Below, piece by piece: positions 22,977 to 40,748 of a stretch of DNA of 64,000 nt. A program made the translations under genes and the position numbers. Positions within the stretch are counted from its first letter, which is position 1, and each line of letters starts with the position of its first letter. The notes below the pieces were generated by a model that was not told the origin of the DNA, did not search any database, and was given only the letters and a program-made list of their open reading frames with translations. Origin of the DNA: a virus; IMG/VR virus record IMGVR_UViG_3300023180_005138, positions 53,379 to 117,378 of that record, one strand, 5' to 3'.

Positions 22977-25900
22977 TTAAACTCCTGTTACCGCGAAATC
23001 TACTTGTGGTAATATACCACTTGGTCCGCCAATATTATGTGCAGAGACTCCATTAGAGAAATATACGGAAATATTCGCTCCTCCTAACCCTCTATCTAAA
23101 ATAATTACTTGTGGTTGTGCTAACTGATTAGAACTTGCACTCACAATAGACCCAGTTACTTTTGGAATTTGTGTAAATGCCATCTGTGAATAATCAACAT
23201 ATTTTGATAAGGTATCTACTGTTACTATTTCTGTATATAATCTTTCGTCTAAAGTTATTTTATAGTTAAACTTATCCAAAATTAATTCAGCTTGAGTCGG
23301 GTCACTATTATTAACTTTATATCTAAACTGGAAATATCTAAAGGTTCTAGCACCTGTTACAAAGTTTTCAAAACCGTCTGAACCAGCTACAGAAGTAAAC
23401 GCTGATGAATCTACGTTACCATTAGCAAAATAAGGACTTGTTGTAGCGTATCTAACTTCAGTATTAGTTGTTACAATACCCGAAGTTCCATAAAAAGTCG
23501 CTCCCTCACTTAAATCTAACCACTGTTTTAAGTTTACCAATTTATAGGAGCTTCCGGCAACTTCTAAATTCGCAAATCCATTACTTCCTGTAGACATTCC
23601 GTTAGCATACCAAGAGTCTCCCAAAATAATTTCATTATCATTAGAAACTCCAGCAATTAAAGAAAATACGTTAGCGTTAGAATCATCTCCGTCATAGTTT
23701 CCAATAGCTACAATACCATATACATTGGCAGGGAAAGATCCTTGTAATCCGCTAACTAAAGTTTTATTTTCTGAATGATAAGTTACCGTAGCTGCTCCTG
23801 TGTTAGAGCTTCCTAAAATTTCTCCAATACCTAATGTTCCAGAAAAATCTACATCCTTTAATTTTCCAGAGCCAGAGGCAGCTTCTGTGACTTGATCTCC
23901 TCCTATCTGCTCGCTATAATCTAACCAAGTAGATTTAAGAGCTTGAGAGCCTACTAATTCTAATTGTATAGAAGCAGTCAAAGTATTACCTAAATCTCTA
24001 ATTTGTGTTACATATTCAGCATTTTCTAGTGCTCTTAAGTCTGTAGGAGATCCTCCAATTACACTCCAACCAGAGGAGGAACCATTAGCGTTATCTACTA
24101 CACTGGAATCAAACAAACTATCCGCTTTTGCGTAAGATAATCCTCCTGTATTAGAAGAATAGAATGATGCATAGGCGGACTCTGTGTTATTAGAGTTGTG
24201 AACCCCTACTACTAAAGGTACTCCAGGGGTATCTTCAGAAAAGATTTGGTATGTTTTACTAAAAGAAACAGGTTGAGAAGTAAAGGAAGCTGCAACTATA
24301 TCAGTACTGAATATACCAGAAGTATCTTTAGTTCTTACTAGATACGAATATTGACCATATTGATCAATATCAATTACTACTCGGTTAGTACGAGCGTCAA
24401 CGATAGCAACCTCTTGTGCTCTAGGCCATAAGTCTAAAAGAGTTGCTTGATCTGTTGCAATAGAGCCTTCAACCTTTTTAATTTGAACTTCTAATAGGTC
24501 AAGGTCATAGTTATCACCTGTTATAGGATCAATAACGTATCTCCAAATCATAACTAAAGTGTCACTTGCCTGTCCTACAGCAAAGTTTACCACATTTTTA
24601 GGAGGAGCTAATTTACCGGTGATTGAAGCCTGTTTAATTGCTACTGAGCCTCTAATATTTTTATTTAAAGGTATAACGCGTACAACAATAGCATTGGGGT
24701 TTGAACTTAAACCTCTTTCAATATTATCTATTTTTATTCTTATCTTTCCATCTTCATCTACCCCTGCTGCAGACACTTTTACAGTATTAAAAGAGGTTAA
24801 GTCTCCTGCAATATCTCCAGATATTTTATAAGAAATTTCATAATCGGTTACTTCTTGACCTGTGATATGGTCAAAAGAAACCATAATTCTAGTAGAGACT
24901 CCTAGTGTTGAGTCTTTATATAACTCTTCCGCAATAGCTAAATTAGAAACAGCCTTAATCGGAATAGGTCTTACACTAACACTTTTAGTTGTAAAAGGGC
25001 TACGTCTTCCATACTTAGTTACGTTTCTAGCCCTTACAGAATGAATACCTACTTCAGCTCTATTAATTACTCTTTTACTACCAGACTCTAAGTTTAAAGG
25101 TATAAAAGTATTAACGGGGGTATTAGTAGTATATACCCCATTATTAGCTAAATTTAAAAGACCTCTATAACGAAGATGGTTATAGTCAAAGGTAAACGTT
25201 TTTGATCCTAAATCTAAATTACCAACAGTTCCAATAGGATCTTCAGTAATATTTATAGCAAACGCTGTTGCCACATTAGATTTAATATTATCACTCAAAG
25301 TAACTCTATATATACCGTTAGCAGTAAGAGCAGCGTCATAAGACGGAGCCGCAATATCAAAGGTAGAGTCAGAAATACCATATACGTTACCCGCATTCCA
25401 GGTAATATTATCACCTCTTTCTAATATAGGAACAGTATAAACATTAGCTGTTACTCTAATATCTAAATTAGATATTGAGGTAGGTAAAGTGCTTAGATTA
25501 ATAGATACTTGAGAATTAGATAAATTATCTAATCCTTTTTCTAGTGTAAAATCAGAGTGTGTTCCTCCATTAATAAATACTTCTACAAAGCCTGTATGTC
25601 TTAGAGAAACTCCTAAAGGTTGTTTAAAAACATGATTATCAATTAAATTAGAGATAGTAGCTGTATTACTTCTAACTAAATCTAAATGTGTACCAGTTAC
25701 ATACAGAGAATTATTAGCAAAATATCTGTGATCTATAACTTGAGGAACCTTAATATAAAAAGGAGGATCAGGCAATAATCCATGAATAGTAGTAGAACCA
25801 GAATGATCATTCAATATTTTAATAGTATTAGTAGAGGCATTATAAGAAGTAACATTAGCACTGTATTGAGTCACCCTAGTATCAGACCCAATAAATCCTA

Positions 25901-28900
25901 ATAATCCCGCTGCGTCTCCTGTACCTCCCTCATCTTTAGAGTTAATTGGTAAAGTAATCTTATCATTACCTTTTAATCCTCCAAAGTCAAAAGTATCATT
26001 AACAGCAAGAACATGAGTACCAAAGTTTATGTCTTGAAGATTGTTTAATCCTGTCAAAGAAAGCTCAATATACCCATTAGCTTCTTCGTCAGCTCCAATA
26101 TCAACGATATCATAACCAGTAACAAGAATTTTTGATCTTCCGATTTCTGTAGTGAAACCGTTTTTACCCATTAGAGTAACAGACTCTCCTTCTAAGATAT
26201 CTGTAAAATCATCCATATGTACTTTTATAATATCCCTCGATGCTTGAGGGGTAGTGTTTGATACTAGCGATCTTGTATTAAAAGGAGGAGCATGGAAAAA
26301 GTCAGTTCTAGTCTCGTTAGAATAACCGGTAAAATCATTTGTAAAACTAATATCAATATCAGTATAAACAGAGCCGTCTAAATCTCTTTTTGGTACTGCT
26401 CTTAGTTCAAACATAGGAGCAGGAGGAGCTTGTAGAGGAGAGAATAAATCCGTAAAAGCTAAAGGCTTATAATTAATTAATGTATCAGAATCTACATAAA
26501 CATTAGAAATATATTCTCTAGCTTCAATGAATACTGTTTCGTCTGGCTCTCTTTTCATATTAATGATTCTAAAGAGTTTGTCAGATTGCGCAGTAAAAAT
26601 ATCAGTAGGATTAGCAATAGTTCCTATACTCCAAGTATCATACCTACTTGGTGTATGAAAAGTTCCCCACCCACCACTAAAAGCATTAAAAGTTTTAGAT
26701 GGGTGATCCCATTTACTTAAAGCCTCAACTCTGATAACTTCGGCACCACCAGTAACATTTGCAGTATTAGATAGATTAAAACTAGTGTTACTAATTATAT
26801 AAGCATCAACTAAACCAGAAGTGTGACTAGACACCCTAAGAATTAAAGGATCAGTATTAGCTGTAAAAAACGACGAAGTTATAGAAGGATTTCCTATATG
26901 TTCTAGGTATATAGCCGTATTTGATGCAGTAGAAGAGTTAGATACTATACCTCCATAACCCCACCCTACAGAAGTAGCTCTTTGAGATACCGCAATAATA
27001 GATCCTGGAGTAAGTTCAGAAGCTTCTATACCAGTTTTAAAGCCAACTTTTCTTCTAGAATATTTGGAATCAGCAATAACATATTGAGCAGCTCTAATTG
27101 CTTGACTTTTTCTAGCTACTCCATCTAAATCAATTTTTGCAATATTCTCAATACTATTACGTTCTCTAAGAGCTTTTGGATCATCAATTCTTAAAACTTC
27201 TCTTCTAAAGTGTAATGTAGGGTCTATATAAGTAACATCTACACCAGTAATTAGAGACTCCTCTGATATACCAGAAATATTCATGGTCCCTGCTATAATA
27301 TTTGTCTCATTAAATACTGCTGATGGCATATTATCAGGCTTATCCTGATACATCATAATTTTACCACCAGAATAGAATAGTATAGATCTAGAACTAAGAC
27401 TAACAATATTTATAGCATCCATGACTTGTTTTTGGTCAGATATAACACCGTCGTATATAAAACGTCTCTCTAACACTCCAAGACCTGCGTCTATCCCCAC
27501 TAAAACCTCTGTAACCTTTGTTTTAACTCCTCTAGGCTTATATCTATTAGTACCATCAGCCTCTGCTGCAACTCCTACAAATTCACCTGTAGTAACATCA
27601 CAAGCATCATTATATACTGCAGCATCATAAAAAGAGAATTTATCAACATTTTCTTCTGGAATACCTAATCCATAAGATTTATTAGTTAGCATGTCATATA
27701 TAATCCATGCAGGATTCTGAGTCCATGAGAATACAAACTGCCCGTCCCAAAGACCGTTATAAATAACAGGAGTGCCTGTTAGTAAGGTAGTTCCAGTTTT
27801 TTGTTGACTATAACCATAATTTGTTCTATCAGTGGCACTAACCTCTACCTCTCTCCAATCAATATCTCCATTCTCTAAAATAGGCTGATTATAATTAGAG
27901 GGTACTTTTACAATAAGACCTTTAACTATCTGAGTAATAGCAGGCATTCCGCCTTTATGTTCTGCGAAAGCTTTTAGTGCATATCCAACAGTAGCTGTTC
28001 TAGTATATGCAATAGGTTCTTCTATAATTTCGGTCCACCCTTGGAAAGTTACAGAGGCTTGTACTTTAGAAGACGCAGTATCAGCATTTGTTTTTTCAAC
28101 TGTGAATTTATAACCAGCGTCATCTATTTTATTAGTAGGAACTGCTAAGTATATGTCAAAAGAAAATGCAACGTTCGTCTTACCATTAATAGTTCTTGTT
28201 TGTGTAGCTAGTTCTTCTGTTCCATCTCTATTATATAATGTAACTTTTACCTCTATAGTTTCTGGAAGAACATCTCCTTTATCATTTTGTTTTTGTAAGC
28301 CTCCAATGATAAAATAAAACTTACAGGCTGTTAATGCTGTAGGAGATGTATCTTGTTTATCAACAGCAGATCGAGGAACGCCATCAGCATTACCTTTTTT
28401 AAGTTCTACTGTTCCTTGTAGTCTCTGAGGGATAAAAGTATAGTCTCCAAATAAAGGAATGCGTTGTTGAGATATTGTTCCTGTATTAGTATAATAAAAG
28501 AACTTTTCATCATCTACTACTCCCTCTACTAATAAATCTTCAATATTACCTTCATTAAATTCTATATCTTGTGGTCCATTTGGGTTGATTCTATATACAG
28601 GACCTTCTCCTAAACCAAGGGTTAGTAATAAAATATCTGTAGAGAACAGGTTATTGGGAGTTTCGGTTCCGCTACCGCCGCCTTTTCCTCCACCGCCACC
28701 ATTATGAACATAAACTCCATTAGCGATATAAGAGTGAACATGAGAAACTTTAAAGTTATAAACTTCTCCATCTCGTAGATATTCAATAGAATTAATTTTA
28801 GATAGTTGATTATCGTTTGTTAAAAGATTGTCACCAACCTTAAAATCTTTTAGCTCTTGATATGTACCATCTTCTTTTAACACCCAGTGATTAGGAGTAA

Positions 28901-29153
28901 TATCAAGAGTACCCGCTTCGTGTTCGACGCGATATATTTTATCTATAGGGTGATAAAAAGTCTCAGTAACTGTGGATAAAACAGAATGTCCTAATTCGTT
29001 AAAAGCCCATACGGAATCTCCTACTTCAATATCTGAAATAGGTTTAAATCCTGATTCTATAGAGATAAGAGTATCAGGAGCAAAACAACCTCCTCCTCCG
29101 CCTCCACCTTCTATTAAAGGAACCGCAGTATCATCAATATAAAGCACTGTCAT
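22977..29153 (-). CDS. Tail tip attachment / central fibre protein (lambda J-like) with an N-terminal Hint domain
   Basis: LGEGPV, IVKGLIVKVPSNY, WTQNPAWIIYDML, GQVWSIG-like segment, FN3-like C-terminal repeats; follows the I-, K- and L-like genes. Confidence 0.88.
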   Translation of the reverse strand: MTVLYIDDTAVPLIEGGGGGGGCFAPDTLISIESGFKPISDIEVGDSVWAFNELGHSVLSTVTETFYHPIDKIYRVEHEAGTLDITPNHWVLKEDGTYQELKDFKVGDNLLTNDNQLSKINSIEYLRDGEVYNFKVSHVHSYIANGVYVHNGGGGGKGGGSGTETPNNLFSTDILLLTLGLGEGPVYRINPNGPQDIEFNEGNIEDLLVEGVVDDEKFFYYTNTGTISQQRIPLFGDYTFIPQRLQGTVELKKGNADGVPRSAVDKQDTSPTALTACKFYFIIGGLQKQNDKGDVLPETIEVKVTLYNRDGTEELATQTRTINGKTNVAFSFDIYLAVPTNKIDDAGYKFTVEKTNADTASSKVQASVTFQGWTEIIEEPIAYTRTATVGYALKAFAEHKGGMPAITQIVKGLIVKVPSNYNQPILENGDIDWREVEVSATDRTNYGYSQQKTGTTLLTGTPVIYNGLWDGQFVFSWTQNPAWIIYDMLTNKSYGLGIPEENVDKFSFYDAAVYNDACDVTTGEFVGVAAEADGTNRYKPRGVKTKVTEVLVGIDAGLGVLERRFIYDGVISDQKQVMDAINIVSLSSRSILFYSGGKIMMYQDKPDNMPSAVFNETNIIAGTMNISGISEESLITGVDVTYIDPTLHFRREVLRIDDPKALRERNSIENIAKIDLDGVARKSQAIRAAQYVIADSKYSRRKVGFKTGIEASELTPGSIIAVSQRATSVGWGYGGIVSNSSTASNTAIYLEHIGNPSITSSFFTANTDPLILRVSSHTSGLVDAYIISNTSFNLSNTANVTGGAEVIRVEALSKWDHPSKTFNAFSGGWGTFHTPSRYDTWSIGTIANPTDIFTAQSDKLFRIINMKREPDETVFIEAREYISNVYVDSDTLINYKPLAFTDLFSPLQAPPAPMFELRAVPKRDLDGSVYTDIDISFTNDFTGYSNETRTDFFHAPPFNTRSLVSNTTPQASRDIIKVHMDDFTDILEGESVTLMGKNGFTTEIGRSKILVTGYDIVDIGADEEANGYIELSLTGLNNLQDINFGTHVLAVNDTFDFGGLKGNDKITLPINSKDEGGTGDAAGLLGFIGSDTRVTQYSANVTSYNASTNTIKILNDHSGSTTIHGLLPDPPFYIKVPQVIDHRYFANNSLYVTGTHLDLVRSNTATISNLIDNHVFKQPLGVSLRHTGFVEVFINGGTHSDFTLEKGLDNLSNSQVSINLSTLPTSISNLDIRVTANVYTVPILERGDNITWNAGNVYGISDSTFDIAAPSYDAALTANGIYRVTLSDNIKSNVATAFAINITEDPIGTVGNLDLGSKTFTFDYNHLRYRGLLNLANNGVYTTNTPVNTFIPLNLESGSKRVINRAEVGIHSVRARNVTKYGRRSPFTTKSVSVRPIPIKAVSNLAIAEELYKDSTLGVSTRIMVSFDHITGQEVTDYEISYKISGDIAGDLTSFNTVKVSAAGVDEDGKIRIKIDNIERGLSSNPNAIVVRVIPLNKNIRGSVAIKQASITGKLAPPKNVVNFAVGQASDTLVMIWRYVIDPITGDNYDLDLLEVQIKKVEGSIATDQATLLDLWPRAQEVAIVDARTNRVVIDIDQYGQYSYLVRTKDTSGIFSTDIVAASFTSQPVSFSKTYQIFSEDTPGVPLVVGVHNSNNTESAYASFYSSNTGGLSYAKADSLFDSSVVDNANGSSSGWSVIGGSPTDLRALENAEYVTQIRDLGNTLTASIQLELVGSQALKSTWLDYSEQIGGDQVTEAASGSGKLKDVDFSGTLGIGEILGSSNTGAATVTYHSENKTLVSGLQGSFPANVYGIVAIGNYDGDDSNANVFSLIAGVSNDNEIILGDSWYANGMSTGSNGFANLEVAGSSYKLVNLKQWLDLSEGATFYGTSGIVTTNTEVRYATTSPYFANGNVDSSAFTSVAGSDGFENFVTGARTFRYFQFRYKVNNSDPTQAELILDKFNYKITLDERLYTEIVTVDTLSKYVDYSQMAFTQIPKVTGSIVSASSNQLAQPQVIILDRGLGGANISVYFSNGVSAHNIGGPSGILPQVDFAVTGV
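28701..29087 (-). other. Hint (intein-like/BIL) domain, residues C23-N151 of J, no endonuclease, +1 residue Gly
   Basis: Block A CFAPDT, block B TPNH, block F VYNFKV, block G SYIANGVYVHN; flanked by G7 and G5K. Confidence 0.88.
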
Positions 29154-29170
29154 TCTGTATAATCTACCTT

Positions 29171-29887
29171 TTAATTTGTCCTAGTAATTTCATCTGACCT
29201 AGTATAAAATATGTCACTCACAGCGATTGTATCGTTTTCTCCGTGTTTTATAGTTTCTACGTGCCCACTTAACATTTGTCCTGCAACTCTAGGAGCACCA
29301 TAAATCAGAGGAACATTAGCATTAGTATCTGTAGTATTCTCTAAAGCATCAAACATATCATTATTTCTTCTTTGTTGGTTATTATTACTATTATTAACAG
29401 GCTCTGGAGGTTTCATCATCATTTGCATTAGTCCAGCCAAAACCAGACCAATACCCATTTTAAGCAGCCCTCCTGCTGTCAGACCAGCGATACCGACCTT
29501 AGCACTAGCATCAAATGCTGCAAGCCCACCAGCGGCGAAGGCACCTCCAGTAAAAAGGGCGAGACCTATTAAAACTACTCCCAAAAGTACCATTAAAAGA
29601 CCACTTTTTCCTCCTGACCCTTCTAAAATAGGGACTAAGGTAAGTTCTTCATGTTTTAATCTATTAAATTCATAGTCTTTTTTCTTTAATAGTTCTCCTT
29701 CTGGAGTTATTAAACTAATATTTTCTTTTAAACATCCTGTAGAGATAGTTTTTATATACCTTCTCATTTTAGGAAATAAAGCCACTAATGCATGACGTAT
29801 ATCAGAAATACTGTTTACGTCTACTTGGTGAGACTTAACTCCTGTCATTTCTTGAAATGCGGGATGAAAGTTTAAAGTAACTAGCAT
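29171..29887 (-). CDS. Tail assembly protein I-like (ubiquitin-like N-domain plus hydrophobic Gly/Ala segment)
   Basis: N-domain ends in VPILEGSGG, then a hydrophobic helix, then NVPLIYGAPRVAGQMLS. Confidence 0.82.
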   Translation of the reverse strand: MLVTLNFHPAFQEMTGVKSHQVDVNSISDIRHALVALFPKMRRYIKTISTGCLKENISLITPEGELLKKKDYEFNRLKHEELTLVPILEGSGGKSGLLMVLLGVVLIGLALFTGGAFAAGGLAAFDASAKVGIAGLTAGGLLKMGIGLVLAGLMQMMMKPPEPVNNSNNNQQRRNNDMFDALENTTDTNANVPLIYGAPRVAGQMLSGHVETIKHGENDTIAVSDIFYTRSDEITRTN

Positions 29888-30252
29888 TGTAAATCTGATT
29901 CCTCTAATGGTTTAAATCTTAGATAATTTAAGTCATCTAACCAGTATAAATAATATTCCTCTTTTGGACTACCAACTATAAATTTATATTGTTTAAATAT
30001 AGCAGAGTTCTTATCATGATCACTAGGTAGTACGTCATGATAAGCAGTATGGCTATGAAAAATACCCCAGCAATCCTCTCCATACTTGAATAAGGCTCTG
30101 GGGTCTAAGACAAAACTTTCTGATGGCACAGGACTAAGATTATCACAAGGAATATATTCAAAGTTTTTTGTAATAATTCCACAACATTCTACTTCAGTAT
30201 TTTCATTAATATGTTTTTTAAATCCTGCTACTAAGTCTTTGTACCTATCCAT
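29881..30252 (-). CDS. JAB/MPN metalloprotease (lambda K N-domain-like)
   Basis: ECCGII...NLSPVPSESFVLDP...IFHSH...PSDHD. Confidence 0.85.
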   Translation of the reverse strand: MDRYKDLVAGFKKHINENTEVECCGIITKNFEYIPCDNLSPVPSESFVLDPRALFKYGEDCWGIFHSHTAYHDVLPSDHDKNSAIFKQYKFIVGSPKEEYYLYWLDDLNYLRFKPLEESDLQC

Positions 30253-30686
30253 TTATATATCCCCATCGTATATTGTTTATAATAGTTACCATATGTAGCT
30301 ATATGTGATTTGTGATTTTGTAATATATGCAGTATCTTATTATTCCCTATATATAAACCACAATGATTAGTAATTGTAGAAGCACCAATAGTCATAGTTA
30401 TAACATCAAATTCTTTAGGACTATTAACTAACTGCCATCCATAATCTTTAGAAGATGCTTTTTTAATATTATCTTCATGAATTTGCTGATACCAGTAATC
30501 GTCTACTATATTACACCAGTCTCTAGTAGTATAGGGTATTTCTATTTCAAGTTCTTGTTTATAAATATACTTAACTAAATTAAAACAATCTATTCCAGTA
30601 TTAGGGTCTAATCCTAAATGTTTAAAAGGAAGCCCTACGTATTTATCCCATTCCACCGCCATATACTTGCTATTTGATCTCTCCAA
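30231..30686 (-). CDS. NlpC/P60 peptidase (lambda K C-domain-like)
   Basis: YVGLPF...GIDCFNL, NHCGLYIG, ILH. Confidence 0.85.
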   Translation of the reverse strand: MERSNSKYMAVEWDKYVGLPFKHLGLDPNTGIDCFNLVKYIYKQELEIEIPYTTRDWCNIVDDYWYQQIHEDNIKKASSKDYGWQLVNSPKEFDVITMTIGASTITNHCGLYIGNNKILHILQNHKSHIATYGNYYKQYTMGIYKWIGTKT

Positions 30687-31066
30687 TCTTGATTTAATAC
30701 CTCAATTAAAGAACTTTTTCCTTCCGGTAAGTGAATAAATCTATTAGCCTCTATATATAAACCAAAATGAGTTGGTATTAAACGACCTGATTTAAATATT
30801 ATTACATCATATTCTTGCAACTCTGTCAAGTAAACTTTTTTAGCAACAGTAGTTGCCCAATCTTCAAGTGTCTGAACGGATAAGCGCTTCATCCAACCTC
30901 TTCCATCTTTTGGCTTACCCCCTGGAAGACCTAAAGGTTCCCACAAACTTTCAAAAACATTAGAATTAAGCTCATTTTTATAGATGGAATCTATAAGAGT
31001 AATACAATTATTTTCTAAGTAATTATGTTGAATTCCTAAGTATTTAAGATATTTTGATTCCATCAT
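30635..31066 (-). CDS. Second NlpC/P60-like protein
   Basis: YLGIQH...NNCITLI, YDVIIF, THFGLY, FIH. Confidence 0.75.
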   Translation of the reverse strand: MMESKYLKYLGIQHNYLENNCITLIDSIYKNELNSNVFESLWEPLGLPGGKPKDGRGWMKRLSVQTLEDWATTVAKKVYLTELQEYDVIIFKSGRLIPTHFGLYIEANRFIHLPEGKSSLIEVLNQDWRDQIASIWRWNGINT

Positions 31067-32219
31067 ACCAATCTGCTAACTGAGGGACTATAGCTGTAAA
31101 ATTTTCGTTTCTATTTCTGTCTAAAATTCCAGTATTTTTCTTAAAGATACACTCTAATTTTTCTCTGTCTTTTATCTCACCATTCATATATCTTAACCAG
31201 TCTGACATATGTTTAATATCAGATATATGTAAATCTTTTTTGTGAGTCTCTATAAAATTTTTATAATACCTCATTATTTTTTGCTTTTCTTCAGTAGGTA
31301 AAACTTGCAAAGAAATAGAAGGGGGAGTAACTAGCGTTGTACCAAAGATAGGTATATTTTTCTTTTTACCCCATAAAAGTAAATCAGGCATAGAATAAAT
31401 AGTTAATATAGATACGACTGAACTAATAGAGGTAACATAGGGTTTAACCATATCTATATTAGACTCAAAGTCTTCCCAAACTAACTCTTTTCTAACATAT
31501 TCTGTAACTTCTTTATAACCATCACAACTCGTCCAGAGGTTGACTTTCTTAAACTGTTTCCATAAAGATACTAGATCATATTCTTTAAATTTTAAAATAG
31601 ATAGGTTAGTGTTATACTGAACATTTATATCAGTTTTACCCTTAGAAATTAAGTACTCCAGTATTTTATAATGTTGCTCTAATACTAAAGGCTCTCCTCC
31701 TGCAAAATATAAAACTTCTAAATTAGGATATATTAACTCTAATCCTTCCCAAAACAAATCATTATCCCACTGCTCTTCTTTTTTACCTTGAATTGAAAAT
31801 AAGTTTTTACCTTCTTTTATCCAAGCAGTACTAGAAGCAGGACCGCAAGTTCTGCACCTAAAATTACAAGTATTTCCTAGTCTAAAATCTATATAAGGAG
31901 GGGGAGGAGGGGTAAGGGTTTTTTGTAGGTACTCTTTGTGACTCCAAAAATTATTAGCGTTATTCTTTGGATTTTCAATAACACCTAATTCATCTTTTTT
32001 AAAACAAGGATTATAACACTGTTCTGGTATTTTCCCTTCTAAAAAAGATTTTCTTAATTCTATGTACGGAGTTCCGTGCCACACATCCATAATAGGTTGT
32101 GTATTATCTCCTAAAGAATCTTTATTTGAAAAAGAATCTGAAAAGCAACAGGCTTTATACTCCCCTCTCATATTACCATGCATATGAATCCACGGTAATA
32201 TACATCCTTTTATTGCCAT
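31044..32219 (-). CDS. Radical SAM protein with an N-terminal twitch/SPASM-like Cys cluster, inserted in the tail-tip operon
   Basis: CILPW...ACC...CYNPC, DFRLGNTCNFRCRTC, YFAGGEP, QYNTNLS. Confidence 0.88.
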   Translation of the reverse strand: MAIKGCILPWIHMHGNMRGEYKACCFSDSFSNKDSLGDNTQPIMDVWHGTPYIELRKSFLEGKIPEQCYNPCFKKDELGVIENPKNNANNFWSHKEYLQKTLTPPPPPYIDFRLGNTCNFRCRTCGPASSTAWIKEGKNLFSIQGKKEEQWDNDLFWEGLELIYPNLEVLYFAGGEPLVLEQHYKILEYLISKGKTDINVQYNTNLSILKFKEYDLVSLWKQFKKVNLWTSCDGYKEVTEYVRKELVWEDFESNIDMVKPYVTSISSVVSILTIYSMPDLLLWGKKKNIPIFGTTLVTPPSISLQVLPTEEKQKIMRYYKNFIETHKKDLHISDIKHMSDWLRYMNGEIKDREKLECIFKKNTGILDRNRNENFTAIVPQLADWYDGIKIS

Positions 32220-34940: not shown

Positions 34941-37900
34941 TTATGTATTACTCCTAATTGATCTTCTGATAGGGCCGTTTGTATCTAGGTCCTTAAGAAT
35001 CAGTTTAACAATTGCTGTTTCGCCGTCCATCTGTGTTTCTCCTTGTTCAGCTTCTTTATCTGATCCTTTATTTTCTATTTGAACTTTTACCTTTGGTGCT
35101 GAATTAAGAGCGGTTTTACCTGTAGCATTCATGCGCTCCATATTTGAAGCACCGATAGCATCTACAGCACTCTTCTTCATTACAAACTCGCCTGGCTCTA
35201 AGAGAGCAGGCACGCTATCACGGGTTCTAACATTACCGCCTGCTGCATAACGAGCAATACCTTGTCTACCTACTAAACCACCTGATGCAGCAGCCACTAG
35301 GGCAGTAAAGAATCCACCGCCACCACCAGCAGAACCAGATGCACCTACAGTTTGTAGGGCTGTAGCAGCACTATAGGCTGCTGTAGTTAGTGTAGTATCC
35401 GCCGTTGTTTGACTTACAGCAGCTACCTTAGACCCCACCTGTGCTGCTTCTAGTGCTTGTGTGGCAGCACCTGCGCTTCCTAAACTACCACCAAGAACGC
35501 TTGCATCATTACCTACGTTGAGTAGGCTGCCTCCAGCAGTCTGTGTATCAGTACCAAAGCTACTTAAAAGTCCACTACTATCCGTAACTTTGGTACCAAA
35601 ATCGCCAAGATTTGTTACGCCATCCTTAAGGCCTGTTGTAAAGTTATCAAGCTCTGCAGTTACTCCCTCAAGGCCAAGGCCACCGTCGCCGATGCCGGCT
35701 TCTGATACACGATTAGTAAACTTATCCGTAGAGAAAGGTGTGGCCGCTGGGAATCCTCCCATAGGAGCTTGTCCAAAACTGGTTCCGAAGGGACTCCCTA
35801 GAGGAGTGAAAGAGCCTCCAATATTACCTAAACCTCCAGGGGCGCCAAAACCCATAGCACCAAAACCACCGGGGCCTGACGGGTTAAGAGTATTTTGACC
35901 AAACATATCAAAAGGACCATATGTTGTCGAAGAATAACCTGTTCCCATTGGATTAAAACCGCCGCCTAAATTATAGTCAGATTGTACCTGATCTCCCAAT
36001 AGAGTACCTATTGGTACGTTTTTACTCTTAAGCACCTCAACAGGGACTCCATTAGACGTTATTCCGCCGCTGCCGCCACCAAACCAATCGCTTACCATAT
36101 CTCCTAGATTTTTAAAAGCACCCGAAACAGAATCTACTATTCCAGATACGCCAGATTTTATACTATCCCATAAATCACTAAATGCACCTTTTGTTTCTTC
36201 TAACATCTCACCAGGAACAGGGGACTTTCCACTACCACCAGTATCAGTAATCTTTGGACCACCAGTACCAGGAATCTTTAGACCACCAGCTGCTTCACCT
36301 ACTCCACCACCAGAGCAAGCACAGAACTCTGATACGTTAGTAACATAAACTGATTGGATGCCAACGTCTTTAAGGGCTTTAACACTTCCTTCAATATTTC
36401 CGAGACTTGATTTAATAGCTGAAGAAGCCGCATCAGGTAGAGTCTGTGTTAATGCTGTTGTAGCAGTTTTAGTAAGCCCTCCTAACAATCCTTGGAATTG
36501 TTGTTTAAGAAAATCAGTTACAGGCTGTACAATAAACTGCTTAAAAGCTTGTTTAGCTAGGTCCACTAAAATACCCTTAAGCATATTCATTAGACCTTCT
36601 TTAAAGTTCTTCATTGTTAGAGTACCGTTTTTAATAGCCTCAAATAAATCATCGACACCTTTATTAAGAGCACCTTCGATAATTCCTGCTGCTGCTTGTA
36701 AATATTTTAATAACCCAGCTTCTTCTAACTGGTACTTTCTTTCTGCTAAAGCAATAATTTCCTTTTGCTTATCTCTTTCAATGTTTAAAGCTGTTAGCTT
36801 TTCTTGTGCGTTAGAAGAAGCGGCAGCTTTTTGTGCCTCAATACTTTTTAACTGAGCTTCGGTATTAGCACTCTGTGCTTCTATTTCTTTAATTTTCTGA
36901 TTATAATTTTCAAGTATTTTTGCTGATTCAGCGGCATATCTTCTGTCTACGTCAGCTTGAATTTTTTTAATCTTCTGCTCTTCTGCGTTTAAAAGCGATG
37001 TTTTAAGATCTGCAAGACGTTGATTCTTCTTAATCTCCTCGTTTAATATATCAGCACTTGCAGTTTTTTGTGCCTCAATATTAGTTCGTAAATTCTCAAC
37101 ATTAGTTTGAAGGGTCTTAATAGTAGAATTAGCCAACTCCCTTGCAGTCTTCTTAACTTCCTCAAGTTGTGGATCTTTCTTACCAGTTTGCAACTCTACT
37201 AGTCTAGCCTGTTGCTCTAAAATTTTAGCCATTGCTGTAATGTATCTATCATCTACCTGAGCCTGCATTTCAAGAAGCTTAACCTTCTTTTCAATTAGTC
37301 CTAGTTGATATTCTCTATCCTTAGCAGCATTTGCTGCTTGTAAGTCAGCAACTTTTTGTTGAGATAAAACAAGTTCTTTTTCTTTAACAATTTGCTCCGC
37401 TCTGTCAGAACGAGCCTTATCATCCAGCGCCTTTTTCTCATCTAGTGCTTTGAACTGGTCAAGTGCTTCAAGTGCTGCATTAGTTTTCTTTACCTCGTTT
37501 AATTCTATTTGTTCTCTTAGTATAGCAGCTTGTTTATCTAAAGCAGCTAAGTCAGCAGCTAGTTTAGTGCGAATTAAGTTTTCTTCTCTATCAAGACGCG
37601 CCATTTCTGCATTAAACTTTTCCCGAGCAACATTAATCTCTGCATCTCTAATTTGTTTTTCTGTAGCTAAATTACCTAATAAACCTAATTGATTTTGTTG
37701 TCTTTCTGCAGCATTAACTTTTTGTAAATCTGCTCGTCGAGCAGCAGCATTAGTTGCTCGTTGCGCAGCTTCTGCTCTAGCAGCTTCTGCCTGTGCTAAT
37801 TGTTTGGAGGCTTCTAAAGCTTTTATTCTTAAGTCAACTTCTTGTTCAAGTCCTTTTCTAACAGTAGCAGCCGCAGCTCTTTCAGCCGCGTTAGCTTCGT

Positions 37901-40748
37901 TTTTAGCTTGTTGAATTTCTCTAGCATTAGCCTGTCTAGCTTTTAGTAGATCTAGCTCTTTTTGTAAAATATCTACAGAAGCTTGCGCTTTTAATACTGC
38001 TAGTTGCTGTTGAAGAACAGTTAAACTTCTTTGTTGAGTTCTTAAAAGTTTTGTAGAATCTTTTGCAGCCTCTATTATAAGACCAGCTTTTGCTTTTTCT
38101 GCTGTAGTAGCATTGGTTGCTCGTTGAATTTCTATAGAAGTTATACCTAGTGATTTAATCTTGCCTTGTAAAATCGATGCCTCGTTATTTTTACCCTCTT
38201 TTTGCGCTTGAACTAACATCTCTTGTAATCTAACAGCTTCTCTTTGCTTATCAGAGATATTTCCTGCCGCTGCTATTGTATCATCTAGGAACTTCATTTG
38301 ATTTGCTTTTACTTCTTCAGGAGTAGCAGCTATCTCAGCTATCTTTCCAACTTTGCTTATAGACCCACTAGCTAATAAAGAGTCAACCGCTTTTAAGGCT
38401 CCTCCGAAAGTAGATTGAAGATCTTTGTTAATTTTTTCTAATCCTTGAACATTAGCTAAAGTATTAGAAAGACTTTGAATTCTTTTCTCTAATTTGTATA
38501 AAGCTTCCTCTTGCTGATTACTTAGATCATCAAAATCTAGAGTATCTGAGAATTTTTCTAACTCTCTATTTGCTCTAACCAAAGCTTGAGAAAGTTTTTC
38601 TGAATTAACACCTAACTTTAATTGCTCATTAAAGTTCTGTATGGCCCCCGTTGTTGCTACAAGAGCGGCTCCTTGTGCTTCTGCTCCCGCTATAAATTCA
38701 TTTTGACCGCCTACATTTTGTATAATAACGTCAAGTAAGTTTTTATACTCTTTTACCGCCGCTCCATTTTCATCAGTTAATTGTTTTACAGCTTTTGCTG
38801 CGGAGTCATAAGACACACCAGTGGCAACAATACCCCTTAATAAACCAACATTTTCTTTTCCTACAGTTTTAATAGCTTGTTTTGTTTCTTGAAGAACTAA
38901 TAGTCTAAACTTTTCTTCTTTTGTTAACTCTCCTGTCTTGTCAGTTAAAGCTTTAATTCGCGCATCAAGGGTTTTTACTCCTGCGTCGTTATCATTGAGG
39001 AGTTTTGTAGTTCTTTCAAGAGATTTACCAGTTAAATCCTGTGAAGCCGCATACTGAATTTGTGATTTACCAAAAAGGAGGAAATACTTTGTGAGCCTAT
39101 CTGTTTTTTCAGAGGCAATTTGTGCATTAACACTACCAGCTTGTACTCCTTGTATTAAATCTGCCTGTTCTTTTCTAACATCTGCTATCTGATCTTCTGT
39201 AAGCCCAAGAGCCTTGGCATATTGAACCGCAGTTCCTGATGAATTTAATATCGCAGTAGATAATCCTTCTATTTCTTTTCTATTTTGTCTAGCCTGAGCG
39301 TTTAATCTTTCAAAGTATCCTATTACCTCTCCAATTAAATCAATACCAAATAAAGAAAGAACTCCTTGAGCAATTCCTACATATATTAAAATTTTTGACA
39401 TTGCCGCCCCTACAGCAACTACTGCTCCTTGTAGAACACGAAAAGTTCCTGCTAATCCTGATACACCCTTTGCAGTTCCTCGTGCAATCTTACCTGTACC
39501 TTCTAGCCTGTCATTAAAAGCTGTTTCTGCAGTTTCGAGTCCTTTAATCTGTGCTGCATAGACCCCCGTGCCGTTATCAAGAGCCTTTAAATCAGCAATT
39601 CTACGTGCAGTTAACTCTTTGCCTCTTTCAGCTTGCCTAATAGATAGATCTTGCGTTGCAAGAAGTTTACGAATTTCTGCCCCTTCAGTACGAGCTAATT
39701 TAGCATTAGTGCCTTGAATAGCTCCTGTACCTGTTAACCCTCCTTCTCCTTTAGAGAGAGCCTGTTTAGCAGCCGCCTGGAACTTAGTAAGAGCTTCTGG
39801 ACCGGCTCTTGAAAATTTCTCAGTAAGATTATCTAATTTTCTAGTAACAAAATCAAATCCAGACCCTAGTCCTGCAACTATAGAGTCTTTTAGTTTTGAA
39901 AAAACAATAGCACCTACAGCCCCAAAAGCTATAATTAAATTACCTGTTTTAGATAAGAAATCAGCAATAGGGCTTAAAACATTTGCTACGAATCCTAACA
40001 CAGATTGTGTTAAGTCTTGGAACTTAGCAGCTAATTGTTCGATTGATTGTTGGGAAGTTTTAGAACTTGTATCAATAATACCAAACTTTGCATTACCTTC
40101 ATCAATAACAGCATTAACAAATGCTTGGCGTCTTTCAAAAGTAGTCAAACTAGAAGCACTTCTATTTAAAGATGCAGCATACTTATTAACAGCAGGCTCA
40201 ATACGAGTAAAAATACCAAGTTCGTCGATAAGTTCTGGTTCTAACTTAGCAGAGCCTCTAACTAGTCGGTTAAAAGAATCTGTTAAATCTCTACCTAAAG
40301 CACGAGATGCTTTTAAAGAAACAGTTGTAAGACCTTCAATCTGTTTAGCACTAAAACCTGCAGAAAGTGCGGTGTTAACTTGAGTAGCAGCTTCAACAAT
40401 AGATAACTGATTTTTTGTTATCTCTTTTGTTTTAGCAATAATTTGATCCCCTGATTCCCCAATAGTTCTAGCTAAAGTTTGAGTACCCCTAATAACTTCT
40501 TCGTTTCTAGCAGCTCTAGACAGTGCTTGGAAAGCAGAAGTAATAGCAAAGATATTAGCGGCAGCGCCTGCATAAACAGAAACCAGACCTCCCAAACCAG
40601 ATGCTTGAGCAGAAAACTGTCTTCCTGCTGATGCGCTGGTTTGACCAAGTCTGGTTTGTTGTTTAGTTACTGTTTCAGTAGCCGCAGCTGCTGCAGCCGC
40701 TCCTTTGGTACTAAAAGTAGTTTCAATAATATTTTTAATTGATGCCAC
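34941..40748 (-). CDS. Tape measure protein (T5 pb2-like N-terminus)
   Basis: 1935 aa, Ala-rich coiled coil, hydrophobic segments, C-terminal AAGG...DSVPALLEPGEFVMKKSAV. Confidence 0.92.
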   Translation of the reverse strand: MASIKNIIETTFSTKGAAAAAAATETVTKQQTRLGQTSASAGRQFSAQASGLGGLVSVYAGAAANIFAITSAFQALSRAARNEEVIRGTQTLARTIGESGDQIIAKTKEITKNQLSIVEAATQVNTALSAGFSAKQIEGLTTVSLKASRALGRDLTDSFNRLVRGSAKLEPELIDELGIFTRIEPAVNKYAASLNRSASSLTTFERRQAFVNAVIDEGNAKFGIIDTSSKTSQQSIEQLAAKFQDLTQSVLGFVANVLSPIADFLSKTGNLIIAFGAVGAIVFSKLKDSIVAGLGSGFDFVTRKLDNLTEKFSRAGPEALTKFQAAAKQALSKGEGGLTGTGAIQGTNAKLARTEGAEIRKLLATQDLSIRQAERGKELTARRIADLKALDNGTGVYAAQIKGLETAETAFNDRLEGTGKIARGTAKGVSGLAGTFRVLQGAVVAVGAAMSKILIYVGIAQGVLSLFGIDLIGEVIGYFERLNAQARQNRKEIEGLSTAILNSSGTAVQYAKALGLTEDQIADVRKEQADLIQGVQAGSVNAQIASEKTDRLTKYFLLFGKSQIQYAASQDLTGKSLERTTKLLNDNDAGVKTLDARIKALTDKTGELTKEEKFRLLVLQETKQAIKTVGKENVGLLRGIVATGVSYDSAAKAVKQLTDENGAAVKEYKNLLDVIIQNVGGQNEFIAGAEAQGAALVATTGAIQNFNEQLKLGVNSEKLSQALVRANRELEKFSDTLDFDDLSNQQEEALYKLEKRIQSLSNTLANVQGLEKINKDLQSTFGGALKAVDSLLASGSISKVGKIAEIAATPEEVKANQMKFLDDTIAAAGNISDKQREAVRLQEMLVQAQKEGKNNEASILQGKIKSLGITSIEIQRATNATTAEKAKAGLIIEAAKDSTKLLRTQQRSLTVLQQQLAVLKAQASVDILQKELDLLKARQANAREIQQAKNEANAAERAAAATVRKGLEQEVDLRIKALEASKQLAQAEAARAEAAQRATNAAARRADLQKVNAAERQQNQLGLLGNLATEKQIRDAEINVAREKFNAEMARLDREENLIRTKLAADLAALDKQAAILREQIELNEVKKTNAALEALDQFKALDEKKALDDKARSDRAEQIVKEKELVLSQQKVADLQAANAAKDREYQLGLIEKKVKLLEMQAQVDDRYITAMAKILEQQARLVELQTGKKDPQLEEVKKTARELANSTIKTLQTNVENLRTNIEAQKTASADILNEEIKKNQRLADLKTSLLNAEEQKIKKIQADVDRRYAAESAKILENYNQKIKEIEAQSANTEAQLKSIEAQKAAASSNAQEKLTALNIERDKQKEIIALAERKYQLEEAGLLKYLQAAAGIIEGALNKGVDDLFEAIKNGTLTMKNFKEGLMNMLKGILVDLAKQAFKQFIVQPVTDFLKQQFQGLLGGLTKTATTALTQTLPDAASSAIKSSLGNIEGSVKALKDVGIQSVYVTNVSEFCACSGGGVGEAAGGLKIPGTGGPKITDTGGSGKSPVPGEMLEETKGAFSDLWDSIKSGVSGIVDSVSGAFKNLGDMVSDWFGGGSGGITSNGVPVEVLKSKNVPIGTLLGDQVQSDYNLGGGFNPMGTGYSSTTYGPFDMFGQNTLNPSGPGGFGAMGFGAPGGLGNIGGSFTPLGSPFGTSFGQAPMGGFPAATPFSTDKFTNRVSEAGIGDGGLGLEGVTAELDNFTTGLKDGVTNLGDFGTKVTDSSGLLSSFGTDTQTAGGSLLNVGNDASVLGGSLGSAGAATQALEAAQVGSKVAAVSQTTADTTLTTAAYSAATALQTVGASGSAGGGGGFFTALVAAASGGLVGRQGIARYAAGGNVRTRDSVPALLEPGEFVMKKSAVDAIGASNMERMNATGKTALNSAPKVKVQIENKGSDKEAEQGETQMDGETAIVKLILKDLDTNGPIRRSIRSNT

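Follow-up and report, generated by a model that had tools for sequence, protein, structure and literature searches.

The DNA analysed here, the window, is a 64-kb stretch of IMG/VR record IMGVR_UViG_3300023180_005138 (117,378 bases; complete according to CheckV) from an uncultured marine phage. It encodes a lambda-type tail-tip module in which J, the central tail fibre or tip protein (22977–29153; 2058 amino acids (aa); phrog_31 at E 4e-91, PF24801, PF13550), carries a Hint domain near its N-terminus. The gene for the tail assembly protein I (29171–29887; phrog_32 at E 6.5e-28) lies next to J and, on its other side, adjoins that for a JAB/JAMM metalloprotease of 123 aa (29881–30252; PF14464 at E 7.7e-8), the JAB half of a split lambda K. 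All features are on the minus strand and are given in window positions. The sequence-only reading of this locus had J begin MTVLYIDDTA-VPLIEG-GGGGGG-C23...T86-P-N-H89...V-H-N151-GGGGGKGGGS, and translation of 22977–29153 gives exactly this order. Residues 1–16 (29106–29153) form a leader that ends in VPLIEG (29106–29123) and mimics the tail of a ubiquitin-like domain. It is followed by a glycine run (aa 17–22; 29088–29105), by the 129-residue Hint domain (aa 23–151; 28701–29087) and by the hinge GGGGGKGGGS (aa 152–161; 28671–28700), which places Gly at the +1 position and is the likely N-terminus of mature J. The key sites of the Hint domain are Cys23 (29085–29087), T86-P-N-H89 (28887–28898) and His150-Asn151 (28701–28706, with Asn151 at 28701–28703).

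Assignment of residues 23–151 to the Hint domains of bacterial intein-like (BIL) type draws on Pfam, sequence matches in the PDB, structure prediction with AlphaFold2 (AF2), Foldseek and the invariant residues described below. PT-HINT (PF07591) matched at 32.9 bits against a cut-off of 27.7, with no toxin downstream and with the domain N-terminal in a structural protein, and the Pfam Hint profile matched at 29.9 bits against 29.7. The best PDB sequence matches were the Npu DnaB mini-intein and the Clostridium thermocellum BIL domain 2lwy, both at 3.5e-6. Residues 21–152 received a predicted local distance difference test score (pLDDT) of about 90 in an AF2 model based on 21 homologues, and Foldseek aligned this model with DnaB mini-inteins (3.6e-11), BIL2 of the Tetrahymena BUBL protein (6y75; 1.2e-10), 2lwy (7.4e-10) and hedgehog (3e-7). 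There were 65 PDB matches at E ≤ 0.001, and the approximately 45 listed were all inteins, BIL domains or hedgehog domains. The horseshoe HINT fold found by AF2, Foldseek and Pfam places the domain in the HINT superfamily. No second Hint was found anywhere in the 117-kb genome, and none was present among the 70 close relatives of I that were returned (47–63% identity); as judged from these proteins, the domain is confined to J in the present family.

Conservation was evaluated in 86 distinct Hint domains from 84 J proteins, two of which contain two copies. All 86 have Gly directly before Cys1 and share C1, F2, H68, T86, H89 and N151 without exception. At the penultimate position, 76 have His and the other 10 have Ser; the +1 residue is Lys in 48, Gly in 38 and never Cys, Ser or Thr. 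The earlier observation that the J Hint lacks a +1 nucleophile thus extends to 86 of 86 domains, and the absence is a property of the family rather than an accident of the window copy. Compared with canonical class 1 inteins, the domain has Cys1, the block B Thr-x-x-His and the C-terminal His-Asn (H150 in 76/86) and lacks the +1 Cys/Ser/Thr. Nor does it show the signs of a mobile element: it is 129 aa long without an endonuclease, its presence requires only three changes on the J tree and it has diverged together with J (see below). The His-Asn end, the N-terminal Cys and the missing C-flanking nucleophile are those of A-type BIL domains; the location is not, since A-type domains occupy hypervariable regions of non-conserved bacterial, often secreted, proteins and the J domain occupies a fixed site in a conserved tail-tip protein. 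Relatives of the Hint in cultured phages whose junctions were read are canonical: a Vibrio phage helicase has Cys at +1, and a Corynebacterium phage terminase has Thr there. These comparisons support classification of the J Hint as BIL-like and not as a canonical class 1 intein, and the domain is very probably active in self-processing.

The sequence-only reading had also noted that I carries VPILEG-SGGK at the end of a ubiquitin-like domain and that a JAB gene is adjacent, both of which hold in the translation and in the PF14464 match. The ubiquitin-like domain spans aa 1–90 of I (29618–29887; beta-grasp in the AF2 model) and runs into the tail motif VPILEGSGG (29609–29635), located by pattern scan, after which come a hydrophobic Gly/Ala segment and a C-terminal domain containing VPLIYG. 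When the pattern [VILT]P.[IVLF].G[GAS][GKF]G was searched in six frames of the window, exactly two occurrences were obtained, one in I and one in J. Among 1289 open reading frames (ORFs) from about 100 related IMG/VR loci, it is confined to homologues of J (84) and of I (58). On these counts, the sharing of the motif between I and J exceeds chance.

The J N-terminus was compared in 197 distinct proteins collected from a protein search and from IMG/VR loci, of which 84 contain the Hint and 113 do not. A P-x-h-x-G leader motif is kept in 83 of the 84 Hint-containing proteins, with 3–10 residues separating the motif Gly from Cys1. Whether Hint-less homologues keep the motif had been raised by the sequence-only reading; they do, with VPxIxG-G/K retained at the site in 108 of 113. 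In Hint-less J proteins, the N-terminal flank is joined directly to the C-terminal flank in the sequence VPxIxG[AS]KGG-KGGGG. The hinge of the window protein aligns with the G/K stretch directly after the leader in these proteins and with the N-terminus of lambda J, for which MGKG had been quoted correctly (MGKGSSKG). Both the leader, modelled as a weak beta-hairpin, and residues 153–184 received pLDDT values below 50 from AF2. Leaders that resemble the phage's own I tail are also present in cultured phages, as in Burkholderia phage Bcep176 (J ...RISGAKGG; I ...VIIGSKSGG) and Rhizobium phage RHph_I4 (J ...LVSGRKGKKG; I ...LTQGHKKGG), and are absent from lambda J. Cultured phages yielded no J above approximately 25% identity, and no Hint lay within a J gene among the phage Hints listed. 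A frameshift or read-through event fusing I to J was ruled out: the frames differ, the 17-nt spacer contains stop codons and J begins at the same Met in all homologues.

The N-terminal domain of I was modelled by AF2 as a beta-grasp fold with a pLDDT of 80. Its best Foldseek match was SAMP1 (3po0; 3.9e-3, TM 0.59/0.70), followed by MoaD and ubiquitin, none of them below 1e-3, and no Pfam family matched the domain. In the alignment of the domain, no columns other than P86, G90 and G92 of the tail motif are invariant; the corresponding segment of lambda I is VPRVAG-AKSGG. These results on I agree with Iyer, Burroughs and Aravind (2006; PMC1779556), who detected the I ubiquitin-like domain by profile searches and predicted that the JAB domain of K cuts I at the conserved Gly. 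In lambda structures, gpI is resolved from residue 101, directly behind VAGAKSG (PMC11101478), which fits processing of I, short of proof. Several Hint-containing clades encode two tandem I paralogues (L066:6098-7473, L069:5941-7497, L072:4005-5596, L082:5211-6671 and L053:2202-3580), each consisting of a ubiquitin-like domain, a VPxhxGGGGK tail, a hydrophobic segment and a C-terminal domain; JAB would have three candidate substrates there. Two other I homologues, L034:6472-7902 (476 aa) and L084:812-2065 (417 aa), have long extensions past the usual C-terminal domain.

Residues E22, H66, S67, H68, S77 and D80 of JAB are invariant in 21 homologues, and its sequence conforms to the E...HxH...S..D zinc site of JAMM/MPN+ proteases with one extra residue between HxH and S. 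Among distinct loci with enough upstream DNA, the order NlpC, JAB, I, J with JAB present was found in 31 of 31 with a Hint and in 30 of 31 without one (61/62 in total). The idea that the Hint substitutes for JAB was ruled out, as every one of the 31 Hint-containing loci has JAB. To represent the complex, JAB, J(1-175) and Zn were modelled together, with an alignment supplied for each protein. The complex scored 0.79 (runs of 0.78, 0.80 and 0.79), compared with 0.00 for the best of three controls; the mark used to judge this score is reached by 58 of 80 solved complexes and by 2 of 110 mismatched pairs. The runs share at least 53% of contacts, and the partner pLDDT is at least 70. The confident interface is limited to J residues 1, 4, 6–7, 9 and 11–20, with no participation of the Hint, and on the JAB side it includes E22, H66, H68, S77 and D80. 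J residues I14–G16 pair with JAB residues 46–49, and G16 contacts H66, S77 and D80 in the model. The sequence-only reading had JAB cutting both I and J at the shared motif. Engagement of the J motif gains support from the model, which places J residues 11–20 in the cleft; cutting is beyond its reach. What the complex shows is that the leader looks like a ubiquitin tail to the modelling method and that the neighbouring Hint is predicted to be no obstacle to docking. We lean slightly towards the view that the J leader is a JAB substrate.

The history of the Hint was traced on an unrooted FastTree phylogeny of the J body (155 representatives, 560 residues excluding the Hint). Its presence requires three changes on this tree, compared with a mean of 48 after shuffling. 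Hint-containing proteins make up a basal grade, one clade of 88 (support 97) is Hint-less, and P0054 is the lone Hint-less protein nested within the window's own clade. One old gain with at least two clean losses is the simplest account that these sequences offer, although gain and loss are not formally separable on an unrooted FastTree. Identity between Hints tracks identity between J bodies (r 0.81 over 3240 pairs), and the GC content at third codon positions is 0.163 in the Hint and 0.169 in the remainder of J; this composition, together with the co-divergence, rules out a recent horizontal acquisition. The sequence-only reading had granted that a sporadic dead intein without a conserved motif would undo its proposal. 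The three tree changes, the invariant catalytic residues and the kept leader motif are the opposite of that outcome. Runs of Gly codons flank the Hint on both sides and provide an easy route to its in-frame loss and duplication. P0061 and P0068 contain two tandem Hints (aa 26–155 and 163–291) that are 50–54% identical to each other and have intact end residues (Cys1, His-Asn). Tandem-Hint J proteins (these two and also P0207 and P0229) belong to a more lambda-like lineage and have a GGGGGKG spacer. In pairs such as L006 and P0012, or P0039 and L063, the Hints are 93–98% identical and the J bodies approximately 70%, which points to recombination break-points just behind the J N-terminal region.

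A Hint-only profile searched against 1.84 billion representatives returned 253 proteins at E ≤ 1e-30, of which the best 150 were examined. These include additional J lineages in which the Hint has an unchanged position (P0308, P0318, P0333, P0335; Pfam FNIII-A_GpJ and Phage-tail_3). Some other J lineages (P0318, P0335, P0339) have a short leader (e.g., M..IAGAGG) before the Hint and a second leader-like motif (YP.IGGSGGGGKK) after it, where a JAB cut would remove the Hint without any Hint chemistry. The same 150 proteins also contain a large bacterial group (P0196–P0237 and others, e.g., P0206, P0196 and P0217), the closest non-phage relatives of the J Hint. Its members consist of a signal peptide, a segment ending ...ARGGGG before the first CF, two to five tandem Hints joined by HN, KG(G)(G) and CF, a Gly-rich stretch, a membrane helix and Tim44-like domains; no description of this group was found in the literature searched. 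Among 280 full domains in the profile matches, 166 have Gly at −1 and 190 have Lys at +1. Both in phage J and in the bacterial proteins, the Hints follow an N-terminal part that would be removed anyway, making ligation unnecessary. By analogy, and short of proof, the bacterial layout supports the J leader being a pro-peptide.

From what was observed directly (the sequence anatomy, the fold, the conservation of catalytic residues, the phylogenetic pattern, the specificity of the motif and the synteny) we infer the chemistry described next, the cutting of both J and I by JAB, and the order in which these steps take place. J would be made as a pre-protein with four parts before its body, the 16-residue leader, the Gly run, the 129-residue Hint and the Gly/Lys hinge, with the end of the leader, VPLIEG plus glycines, copying the C-terminal tail of the I ubiquitin-like domain. 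The Hint would remove itself, with Cys23 forming a thioester with Gly22 and cyclization of Asn151 freeing the J body, which would then begin at Gly152 with an N-terminus corresponding to that of lambda J. Because Gly is at +1, canonical transesterification cannot occur; the Gly22 thioester would be hydrolyzed or attacked by the freed Gly152 amine, the latter rebuilding the exact form of a Hint-less J. JAB would most likely bind and cut the J leader at or next to Gly16, and I at the same motif. The model suggests that Hint excision and the JAB cut are sterically possible in either order. A Hint without a +1 nucleophile may be tolerated since it sits between a removable leader and mature J, where ligation is not needed. 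Overall, we assign a probability of roughly 0.6 to the picture of a self-excising BIL-type Hint placed between a removable, JAB-recognized leader and mature J. The Hint itself is best explained as an old, vertically inherited passenger; that it benefits the phage beyond removing itself is less likely than not.

Several observations weigh against this picture. Cys1, T86 and H89 would be free to decay if only the C-terminal cut were needed, and their invariance suggests that the thioester is needed, be it to ligate or to couple with the C-terminal cut. Hint-containing lineages have kept the leader motif, so the leader has a role there too, and the long retention of the Hint between loss-prone Gly-codon flanks could mean benefit and not mere tolerance. 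Taken together, these features suggest more than passive tolerance and keep alive both ligation by aminolysis and transfer to lysine, which are weighed below. Complexes of JAMM proteases with ubiquitin tails have solved structures, and the favourable complex score may thus reflect likeness or memory. Finally, the lambda structure shows J from residue 1 onwards (PMC12617516), so the model phage offers no known case of J processing.

Two rivals concern what becomes of the Gly22 thioester. True splicing by aminolysis, in which the freed Gly152 amine (Lys in other clades) attacks the thioester, rejoins the leader, hinge and J as in Hint-less J and leaves JAB to use or trim the product, would account for the invariant N-terminal catalytic residues, for the leader motif kept in Hint-containing lineages and for joined flanks that equal the Hint-less sequence. 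Gly at −1 is unhindered, as is the Gly often found at +1, and BIL domains are reported to ligate even where no nucleophilic side chain is available: 2lwy by Aranko 2013 and other BIL domains by Dassa 2004, in the accounts that PMC7664689 and PMC7765530 give of those studies. We nevertheless regard such splicing as rather unlikely: BIL domains, which lack a +1 nucleophile, yield mainly cleaved products (PMC7664689), joining would be purposeless if JAB strips the leader anyway, and the present data do not separate ligation from hydrolysis. Transfer to lysine is quite improbable. Here the Hint thioester would pass the ubiquitin-tail-like leader, or the J N-terminus, to a lysine (K157 of J, the +1 Lys elsewhere, or one in I or another tail protein) in a conjugation or tagging cycle that needs neither E1 nor ATP. 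Reversal of the link by JAB, an isopeptidase by ancestry, would make the cycle a viral counterpart of ciliate BUBL and an assembly checkpoint, and is equally improbable. BUBL BIL2 is among the best structural matches and forms an isopeptide bond to Lys without ATP (PMC8616854); Lys is present at +1 in 48 of the 86 Hints or a few residues further on, and the complex model has the leader occupying the JAB cleft as a ubiquitin tail would. Against such a cycle, only a peptide of 16–22 aa, not a ubiquitin-like domain, precedes the Hint, tagging with such a peptide has no apparent purpose, and Hint-less relatives cope with the same leader, JAB and I.

The other rivals question the motif or the Hint itself. 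The leader might have a structural role, as a strand by which J is docked to I, K or L while the tip is assembled and which stays on mature J, with JAB cutting I alone or nothing. Its modelled beta-hairpin, the binding of lambda gpI to gpJ via beta-sheet augmentation (PMC10721106) and the third, similar strand VPLIYG in the I C-terminal domain would suit a docking role. We consider it unlikely, given that the J motif is followed by a G/K run, which likens it to the tail of the I ubiquitin-like domain rather than to the motif in the I C-terminal domain, that G16 lies at the zinc ligands in the complex model and that lambda J does without a leader. The remaining alternative is highly improbable: either the Hint is an intein relic that occurs sporadically and is decaying, or it has an anti-defence role, countering host ubiquitin-like (Bil) systems that conjugate to the central fibre. 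The relic is excluded by catalytic residues that remain invariant down to approximately 40% J identity, by co-divergence with J and by the confident fold. The anti-defence role can appeal only to a published speculation in which Bil conjugates might be stripped by deubiquitinase domains of phages (Hör et al., bioRxiv 10.1101/2023.09.04.556158); the JAB/I/J module is family-wide whether a Hint is present or not, and the analysis revealed no link to a defence system. Of the roles put forward in the sequence-only reading, the counter to host defence, the timing switch for tail assembly and the ligation of a partner through the Cys1 thioester all draw no support from these results.

The remainder of the operon follows the lambda-type order H, M, L, K, I, J (Tape_meas_lam_C, Phage_tail_L, NlpC/P60, JAB, phrog_32, phrog_31). 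Beyond JAB lie an NlpC/P60 peptidase gene, the other half of lambda K (30231–30686; PF00877 at E 6e-13), and a second, diverged NlpC/P60-like ORF that is kept in related loci (30635–31066; PF00877 at E 2.6e-5). Lambda K is thus split three ways, into two NlpC/P60-type ORFs (30231–31066) and the separate JAB gene; the ORFs overlap one another by a few codons, and most related loci have the same split. A radical SAM gene with an N-terminal SPASM domain (31044–32219; PF04055, PF13186) is located between the L homologue (Phage_tail_L) and the NlpC genes and recurs in distant relatives (L069:3637-4815, L072:1701-2876). Lambda L proteins hold a 4Fe-4S cluster. The operon also contains a gene with a weak DUF2460 match and the tape-measure gene (34941–40748; Tape_meas_lam_C). 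A protease of unknown identity cleaves the lambda tape-measure protein gpH within a glycine-rich region (PMC12617516). The JAB of K would be a candidate for this cut, yet the pattern scan found no I/J tail motif in the window's tape-measure protein.

The roles of gpK and gpI in lambda-type tail assembly are still unsettled: gpK is absent from virions (PMC10721106), and recent structure papers continue to give its location as unknown. The locus widens the 2006 prediction of a JAB–gpI pair, in that J itself repeats the I tail motif and the model puts this repeat into the JAB active site. Maturation of two tail-tip proteins, or three in some relatives, may thus depend on a single protease, and the leaders of the cultured phages make this directly testable. 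The locus also defines a large, old and uniform intein-like group, with G at −1 and K or G at +1, in phage J and, as tandem arrays, in secreted bacterial proteins. This group constitutes a natural set for nucleophile-free Hint chemistry and may supply useful self-cleaving tags that leave an oligo-Gly N-terminus.

BIL domains and the pairing of JAB with ubiquitin-like domains in tail modules are already known. The literature searched contained no account of a BIL family at a fixed site of gpJ, of a J leader imitating the I tail or of the fit of this leader to the JAB active site as modelled here; full-text searches returned neither a J leader nor a gpJ Hint, and no study in which the protease activity of gpK was put to a test. 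Among known systems, A-type BIL domains (2lwy of C. thermocellum; PF07591) share with the J Hint the HINT fold, Cys1, the block B TxxH, the C-terminal His-Asn and the missing +1 nucleophile, and the chemistry expected of both is N- and C-terminal cleavage with possible ligation by a free amine. The known A-type domains are found in variable regions of bacterial secreted or toxin proteins, whereas the site of the J Hint is fixed within a conserved structural protein of a phage: Gly always precedes the domain, K or G always follows it, and a ubiquitin-tail-like leader lies in front. The J Hint has also long been co-inherited with this protein. Class 1 mini-inteins of helicase and terminase genes in phages (Npu and Ssp DnaB, gp41-1) give the best matches at 25–34% identity, are of equal size, lack an endonuclease and have an exact intein-free junction. 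They differ in that those read in cultured phages have C or T at +1, where the J Hint never has C, S or T, and in that the J site is a Gly/Lys linker and not a catalytic motif.

In Tetrahymena BUBL, BIL2 lies between two ubiquitin-like domains (6y75, 6tmm), and, as in J, the Hint directly follows a Gly-Gly-type ubiquitin tail and has a lysine downstream (PMC8616854). J has only the ubiquitin-like tail and no domain, with 22 residues of low model confidence before Cys23, and conjugation is not needed to explain the data. The lambda/T1-type tail-tip module (gpK, gpI and gpJ) matches the locus in gene content and gene order, in the conserved Gly that follows the I ubiquitin-like domain and in the intact JAMM residues. 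Here, in contrast, K is split into JAB and NlpC genes, the J leader repeats the I tail motif and a Hint domain follows the leader.

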